DNA from: a virus
Lineage: Duplodnaviria > Heunggongvirae > Uroviricota > Caudoviricetes
Length of the DNA stretch: 41,734 nucleotides
Virus record (IMG/VR): IMGVR_UViG_2850802633_000004
Strand: one strand, 5' to 3'
Program-made: the position numbers and the translations under genes
Shown here: positions 14,197 to 15,308 of the stretch, piece by piece
Numbering within the stretch: the stretch's first letter is position 1
Layout of the letters: every line of letters starts with the position of its first letter
Notes under the pieces: generated by a model
What the model saw: the letters and a program-made list of their open reading frames with translations, nothing else
Database searches by the model: none
Told to the model about the DNA's origin: nothing

Positions 14197-15308
14197 ATGG
14201 CGCTTTTTCAACGAGCAATAAACACACAGGCCTATCTAAAAGCAGGAATTATGGGGTTTGCTGGCGACGGCAAAACCTACACAGCAAGCGAACTGGCTAT
14301 TGGTCTGGTAATGCTTATGCGGCAACGGGGAATTGAAGCTGGTAACCGCCCGGTAATGTTTCTGGACACAGAAACAGGCTCTGACTGGGTTAAACCCCGC
14401 TTTGATGCGGAAAATATCGAATTATTTACGGCAAAAACCCGCTCGTTTGTTGATCTGCTTGAAGCCATTAATGAAGCGGAAAGCAGCGGTTCCGTAATGA
14501 TCATCGACTCCATCAGTCACTTCTGGACCGGATTATGCGACGAGTATGCCAGACGCCGAAACCGTAAACGAGGACTGGAATTTTCAGACTGGGCGTGGCT
14601 CAAACAGGAGTGGCGACGCTTTACCGATCGATTTGTTAACAGTCAGGCGCACATTATTATGTGCGGGCGTGCAGGATATGAGTATGACTTTTTCGAAGGT
14701 GATGATGGCAAACGCCAGTTGGCAAAAACCGGTATAAAAATGAAAGCAGAAACAGAAACCGGTTATGAACCCTCCATCCGGATCCAGATGGAGAAGCAAA
14801 TGAACATAGAAACCGGTCAGGTGTGGCGCACCGCCAGAATACTAAAAGATCGCTCCACCCGTATTGATGGACAGGTATTTTCAAACCCAACATTTAAAAA
14901 CTTTCTTCCTCATATCGAGTCTCTTAACCTGGGAGGTGAACACCCCGGCATCGATACCTCACGGGATAACAGTGAATTATTTGCCAACGACGGTACACCG
15001 ACATGGCTAAAAGAAAAGCGTGCAAAAGAAATCGCACTTGATGAAATTAACTTGATGAAATTATCGAGTTGCTCAACAAGCACCATGGGGGCACCAGTAA
15101 CGACGCCAAACGCGCAAAAGCTGATTTGCTGGAAAAAACATTCACCTCCCGCTCATGGGAAAGAATCAAAGGTATGGACTGGCCGACAATCAAAGCTGGT
15201 CGTAATGCACTATGGATTGAACTGGAAGGCGTTGAATATGCATTCCCGGATCCACAAACACAAAACGAAACGCAACAAGCAGGATACGATGAGAATATTC
15301 CGGTGTAA
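14197..15308 (+). pseudogene. Phage P-loop NTPase (Walker A GFAGDGKT), disrupted by a 14-bp tandem duplication near 15040-15067
   Basis: RBS GGAGG upstream; ACTTGATGAAATTA occurs twice in tandem, shifting frame; downstream frame (15069..15308) reads on as a plausible C-terminus. Confidence 0.6.

Follow-up and report, generated by a model that had tools for sequence, protein, structure and literature searches.

In the window, i.e. the whole stretch of 41,734 nucleotides of viral DNA that was analysed, a lambda-type gam gene split by an insertion sequence is followed by the coding region of a prophage ATPase, which is divided between two reading frames and lies just ahead of a further insertion sequence. 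The locus comprises the following features:

11424..12242, minus strand: ORF of a 272-aa insertion sequence transposase with rve-type integrase domains, between recE and gam
12643..12895, plus strand: 5′ part of lambda-type gam (Pfam Gam on the called product), the last 47 bp of which lie beyond IS911 at 14145..14191
12896..14144, plus strand: IS911 in the 3′ end of gam, flanked by the 3-bp target duplication CTG (12893..12895 and 14145..14147)
14197..15308, plus strand: very probable pseudogene derived from a prophage ATPase with a RecA fold (AAA_24), delimited by alignment with the E. coli orthologue, the restored ORF, Pfam AAA_24 and PHROG 1366
14197..15357, plus strand: present ATG ORF of 386 aa, composed of 284 native and 102 out-of-frame residues and ending in the left end of IS629
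14254..14277, plus strand: intact Walker A motif GFAGDGKT, aa 20-27 (script), whose columns G20-T27 are invariant in the alignment
15036..15049, plus strand: copy 1 of ACTTGATGAAATTA (sequence, Tandem Repeats Finder, script)
15050..15063, plus strand: copy 2 of ACTTGATGAAATTA, the extra 14 bp without counterpart in orthologues and in the majority S. flexneri allele
15069..15308, plus strand: residual 79-aa ORF that begins with TTG, keeps the original C-terminal frame and encodes the greater part of the conserved helical domain
15329..16479, plus strand: IS629 of 1151 bp with a shortened orfB, beginning 20 bp past the true stop codon of the ATPase gene

A perfect 14-bp tandem duplication shifts the reading frame

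Two perfect tandem copies of ACTTGATGAAATTA at 15036..15063 are evident from the sequence itself, from a script and from Tandem Repeats Finder (period 14, 2.0 copies, 100% matches). The perfect repeat described in the initial annotation is real, and its coordinates, given there as 15040..15067, have to be moved four bases to the left. The local order is GAAATCGC ACTTGATGAAATTA ACTTGATGAAATTA TCGAG. Neither the preceding C nor the following T extends the unit, so that the repeat consists of exactly 2.0 copies. According to the script, it is the sole perfect non-trivial tandem duplication with a unit of at least 12 bases in the window. By chance, approximately 1.6e-4 such duplications are expected per window, and none occurred in 200 shuffles. 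A script search for microhomology flanking the duplicated unit found none, and slippage between short repeats is thus not directly indicated.

When one copy was deleted by script, 14197..15049 and 15064..15308 fused into a single ORF of exactly 365 codons, the length that had been predicted approximately from the raw sequence. The insertion of 14 nucleotides (frame +2) shifts the frame after codon 284. As a consequence, residues 285-365 including 10 invariant columns (E286 to P348) are lost from the product. The separate C-terminal ORF that had been noted downstream of the repeat is indeed present as listed above. Pfam contains no family matching the 102-residue out-of-frame tail or the 79-aa residual ORF. 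The Walker A/B core is kept in the 386-aa product, which still scores 52.0 bits with Pfam AAA_24.

The intact gene product is predicted to be a RecA-fold ATPase with a conserved C-terminal domain

The intact orthologue matches Pfam AAA_24 (PF13479) over aa 14-187 with 52.5 bits at a cut-off of 27. Among the phage protein families, PHROG 1366 (unknown function) was matched at E 1e-79 and the Sak4-like PHROG 124 only weakly, at E 1e-8 over aa 9-167. No NCBIfam model for the ATPase was found, and a PDB sequence search up to E 1 gave no match to it. Besides the Walker A motif, the protein contains a Walker B-like strand, VMIIDS, at aa 100-105; the columns of both motifs are invariant in the alignment. 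The search of a large protein collection returned 2047 homologues at E ≤1e-10. Nearly all of the 120 homologues listed are 355-380 aa long and cover 95-100% of the query at 60-87% identity, and those with a named source come from Enterobacteriaceae, Pseudomonas and Burkholderiales. An alignment of 20 sequences revealed strong conservation of the C-terminal region, in which A280, E283, E286, K300, E308, R314, W316, R318, R331, W335, L338, Y343 and P348 are invariant.

In the AlphaFold model, based on 56 sequences (pLDDT 84.7, pTM 0.73), an alpha/beta core precedes four C-terminal helices that span residues 269-339. The first of these helices is interrupted by the frameshift after residue 284, at a point where the pLDDT exceeds 90. 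Foldseek searches with the model retrieved RAD51 and its paralogues, KaiC, RadA, RecA and UvsX at E values from 6e-8 to 1e-5 and a probability of 1.00, with modest TM-scores of 0.33-0.54 over approximately 230-240 columns. The matches among viral models were phage “RecA-like recombinase” and AAA proteins. For the C-terminal helical domain, no named relative appeared among the structure and profile matches. From the model and the profiles, the ancestral gene product is predicted to be a 365-aa RecA-fold P-loop ATPase in which an AAA_24 core is joined to a conserved four-helix domain at the C-terminus. The AAA_24 match, the RecA-like fold and the GFAGDGKT motif at aa 20-27 agree with the initial assignment as a phage P-loop NTPase with a Walker A motif.

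Orthologues and most S. flexneri genomes carry a single copy

Megablast retrieved a copy with 98.6% DNA identity from 10 complete E. coli genomes, in which the match is exactly 14 bp shorter. In the two of these genomes whose annotation was read, the gene encodes a 365-aa “AAA family ATPase” (WP_001173292.1). A three-way alignment showed, apart from the 14-bp gap, only three further differences from E. coli. All three are non-synonymous (L195R, F242S and L250P) and none is synonymous. L195 occupies a column that is invariant in the 20-sequence alignment, where S. flexneri has R. Further private non-synonymous changes (R68S, G36D, I324S and D131G) were seen in other S. flexneri alleles. Together, these differences suggest that selection on the gene was relaxed before the frameshift.

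The repeat is likewise missing from the gene of Cronobacter phage phiES15 and from the other homologues, all of which, like the ten E. coli genomes, have one continuous ORF. The two-ORF structure is thus not a natural arrangement of this gene, as the inactivating event proposed in the initial annotation demands. When the locus was compared with 50,697 phage records by megablast, only the IS629 end was matched and no near-identical copy of the gene was found.

Within S. flexneri, both arrangements exist. For the comparison of alleles, 20 genomes covering both were drawn from an index of exact proteins. The restored ORF is identical at 1098 of 1098 positions to the intact allele of 10 complete S. 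flexneri genomes, and at least 1000 contigs carry its product under the name “putative bacteriophage protein [Shigella flexneri]”. Contigs longer than 1 Mb are found in 60 of the 1603 index blocks that list the exact restored protein. The exact 386-aa frameshift product occurs in 35 blocks (10 with contigs longer than 1 Mb), whose named sources are S. flexneri; as index blocks are not equivalent to genomes, 35 versus 1603 gives rough allele frequencies. In all ten two-copy loci that were fetched, representing at least ten complete or draft S. flexneri genomes, the gene DNA is identical, and one of them (CP026768) equals the window exactly for at least 10 kb on either side. CP026768 is the S. 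flexneri strain 93-3063 of serotype Y, while the two-copy carrier CP020753 is strain Y394 of serotype 1c (PMC9455713). The two-copy allele is thus found in several serotypes. Public annotations already treat the locus as a disrupted gene.

A 14-bp tandem copy could in principle arise by local mis-assembly, and most S. flexneri assemblies do carry the intact allele. However, the same 386-aa product and the same gene DNA were recovered in 10 genomes from different projects (CDC, NCTC, Y394, hybrid assemblies), the product recurs across the 35 index blocks, and its distribution is nested with an independent marker, the IS911 insertion in gam described below. These independent assemblies with identical gene DNA exclude a sequencing or assembly artefact concealing an intact gene, the probability of which we consider practically nil. 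Rather, comparison of the alleles indicates that the duplication is a derived, minority allele of one S. flexneri sub-lineage.

The gene belongs to the early-left region of a decayed Rac-like prophage

In E. coli, the gene is located between a lambda-type gam and DUF1187-xis-int. As rha, ydaE and recE lie upstream, the element is a Rac-like lambdoid prophage, and the gene order assigns the ATPase gene to its early-left recombination module (recE-gam-ATPase-xis-int). Distant homologues, too, are invariably encoded in the early-left operon, with the immunity region on one side and the integrase on the other. Achromobacter-type prophages have an SSB gene that starts exactly at the end of the ATPase gene (loci L013, 6001..7583, and L014, 6001..7577). 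This neighbour is absent in the E. coli and Shigella prophages as well as in loci L015 and L016, and enterics have gam upstream.

The S. flexneri prophage is a decayed remnant beside sitABCD that is broken by IS600, IS2, IS1, IS629 and IS911. At its edge lies an ipaH-type effector gene (571 aa, 2942..4657) with LRR_TTSS and NEL domains and 60-bp LRR repeats at 3284..3496, so that the cluster carries both ipaH and sitABCD. The gene sitA (18417..19330), which specifies the ZnuA-family binding component of the iron/manganese transporter sitABCD, is split into ORFs of 206 and 114 aa. The break near 18939 is a 1-bp deletion in a C run relative to the intact 304-aa gene of other S. flexneri. The same split occurs in CP026768, and locus L005 is split differently. 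An 11-bp unit, CTTTTTTGCCC, is repeated at 18157..18181 upstream of sitA, between an integrase remnant and sitA. Its copy number varies in S. flexneri: one in L008, two in the window and most loci, and three in L009. Finally, at 26613..27239 and 27544..29148 (minus strand), a dense cluster of iteron-like short tandem arrays with units of 9, 10, 11, 12/24 and 47 bp adjoins the gene of a tyrosine recombinase of 534 aa, which has DUF6538 at its N-terminus.

Flanking insertion sequences date the duplication

The 272-aa transposase encoded at 11424..12242, which we take to be IS600 orfB, is found upstream of gam in one-copy and two-copy genomes alike. From its position between recE and gam, it parts the ATPase gene from the early-left promoter region throughout the S. 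flexneri genomes examined. Similarly, IS629 is found at the identical site in every S. flexneri genome examined, whichever allele is present. The state of this IS629 copy differs among S. flexneri genomes. For instance, its orfB measures 243 aa in the window and 294 aa in L008, and the IS629 copies of L019 and L023 harbour a group II intron reverse transcriptase.

Since the three substitutions, IS629 and the 272-aa transposase are all shared with intact-allele genomes, they predate the duplication. IS911 has a different distribution. The window and eight other two-copy loci carry it in gam with the CTG target duplication, whereas one two-copy genome, L008 (CP037996), has an uninterrupted gam. 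All 10 intact-allele genomes have an uninterrupted gam without IS911. This nested pattern places IS600, IS629 and the three substitutions first, then the 14-bp duplication and finally IS911. The pattern fits a single origin and clonal descent of the duplication, with no sign of reversion. The initial view of a specific and recent-looking event can be kept insofar as the copies are identical and differ at 0 of 1098 positions from the intact allele; the event is not private to one strain, as it is present in at least ten S. flexneri genomes, and it is older than the IS911 insertion.

The distribution also bears on the idea that the gene is still functional because the two-copy repeat acts as a reversible slipped-strand phase-variation switch, or because programmed frameshifting restores the frame. 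Tandem duplications can be reverted by slippage, and one-copy and two-copy alleles coexist within S. flexneri. Yet the copy number is only ever one or two, there is no back-and-forth variation, and the two-copy group is nested with IS911, whose absence from all ten intact-allele genomes fits a single gain without reversion. Frameshifting would require a −1 shift within 15051..15066, a stretch bounded by the TAA at 15048..15050 of the C-terminal frame, and reading of the sequence between 15051 and 15066 did not reveal any slippery heptamer of the type X XXY YYZ. Moreover, the prophage is dead and carries L195R at an invariant site. A gene kept functional in either way is therefore very improbable.

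Insertion sequences could also be invoked directly, if a mobile element had once inserted here and been lost again, with the 14-bp direct repeat as its remaining target-site duplication. The region is saturated with such elements, there are exactly two copies and there is no flanking microhomology. However, this site is free of any element in all 20 genomes examined, and target duplications are not typically 14 bp long. Insertion sequences of the types present in the window generate target duplications of 3-9 bp, and the loss of a bacterial insertion sequence normally does not leave the target duplication behind. We thus give this origin of the repeat little credence and favour a simple tandem duplication.

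Discussion

Taken together, the region at 14197..15308 is very probably a pseudogene: a 14-bp tandem duplication in a sub-lineage of S. flexneri has shifted the reading frame of an ATPase gene that belongs to a Rac-like prophage remnant cut by insertion sequences. The S. flexneri prophage first accumulated the three substitutions and the insertions of IS600 and IS629. ACTTGATGAAATTA was then duplicated in tandem, most likely by a slip during replication or repair, although flanking microhomology is lacking. The resulting +14 shift after codon 284 cost the protein its conserved C-terminal domain and added 102 unrelated residues. Finally, IS911 inserted into gam within the two-copy lineage.

Because the break lies in the middle of a helix of a confidently modelled and conserved domain, the frameshift is expected to abolish the function of the protein. 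The truncated product could nevertheless stay partly active since its ATPase core is intact. The term inactivated, used in the initial annotation, is therefore apt with regard to the lost C-terminal domain, and it is somewhat too categorical in view of the retained Walker A/B core. Whether any function was left to lose is doubtful. The gene was probably non-functional or unexpressed before the duplication because the prophage that contains it is a remnant, its operon is interrupted upstream by IS600 and an invariant residue is altered by L195R. The duplication may thus have been a second hit on an already dead gene. The event itself was probably neutral given the prophage remnant, the separation of the gene from the early-left promoter region by an insertion sequence and the exclusively non-synonymous substitutions.

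An opposite interpretation would see the 386-aa truncated protein as a neo-functional or dominant-negative product maintained by selection. In addition to the intact Walker A/B core, the frame stays open for 102 codons past the shift and the allele persists in several serotypes. Persistence of this kind is, however, expected of a neutral marker in a clonal pathogen. Furthermore, the out-of-frame tail ends within IS629 and belongs to no family that was found, and the upstream insertion sequence destroys the promoter context. A selected product of this kind is hence highly unlikely, and neutral decay of the gene is the explanation to which we adhere.

As such, the locus represents ordinary lineage-specific pseudogenisation of a well-known kind that adds little beyond bookkeeping. 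It demonstrates that a true frameshifting duplication can be recognised from raw sequence, as was done in the initial annotation. Furthermore, the duplication cleanly marks one clonal sub-lineage of S. flexneri and forms part of an ordered series of events. The wider point concerns the family, as proteins with an AAA_24 core and this C-terminal domain (PHROG 1366) are abundant and conserved. Their genes, with Gam and RecE or SSB as neighbours, occupy the part of temperate phage genomes in which recombinases are kept. Tentatively, and with more doubt than conviction, we suggest that the PHROG 1366 family might constitute a distinct class of phage recombination ATPases, which would be related to Sak4 without being core-only. 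If so, S. flexneri offers a natural allelic series ranging from the wild-type-like E. coli form through the L195R/F242S/L250P variant to the C-terminal frameshift.

Comparison with known systems

The closest counterpart of the pseudogene is the gene encoding WP_001173292.1 in E. coli, an orthologue with 98.6% identical DNA and with the start, the stop and the upstream gam in common. The copy in the window differs from it by the 14-bp duplication, by L195R, F242S and L250P and by the loss of neighbours to insertion sequences. The homologue in Cronobacter phage phiES15 (84.7% protein identity) is also located beside a Gam-like gene and consists of a single ORF without the repeat.

Among characterised proteins, Sak4 of phage HK620 is the relevant reference. 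It is a core-only RecA that binds and anneals single-stranded DNA in an ATP-dependent manner, and its cognate SSB stimulates it (PMC5928155). The ATPase described here shares with HK620 Sak4 the Pfam AAA_24 match, the RecA-like fold, the Walker A and B motifs and a place in the early-left recombination module of a temperate phage. The Achromobacter-type relatives have an SSB gene directly downstream, as in the Sak4 arrangement, and the E. coli/Shigella prophage does not. HK620 Sak4 consists of a core of 226 aa, whereas the 365-aa ATPase has a conserved helical domain in addition, at its C-terminus. The best PHROG of the ATPase is 1366 and not the Sak4-like 124, and a BLASTP comparison with HK620 Sak4 was not significant (E 0.11). 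As the similarity is not significant and the protein is not core-only, we do not assign it to the Sak4 family in the strict sense. By analogy of fold, family and neighbourhood, the intact protein probably acts in a Sak4-like manner in phage recombination.

With respect to the lesion, the locus resembles the frameshift pseudogenes of other decayed Shigella prophages, in which the expansion of insertion sequences drives reductive evolution of the genome. A small out-of-frame indel has become clonally fixed in a non-essential gene surrounded by IS600, IS911, IS629, IS1 and IS2, and the strain-specific 1-bp frameshift in the nearby sitA reflects the same kind of decay. What distinguishes the ATPase gene from the usual Shigella prophage pseudogenes is the nature of the mutation, which is a clean 14-bp tandem duplication instead of a homopolymer slip or the insertion of an insertion sequence.
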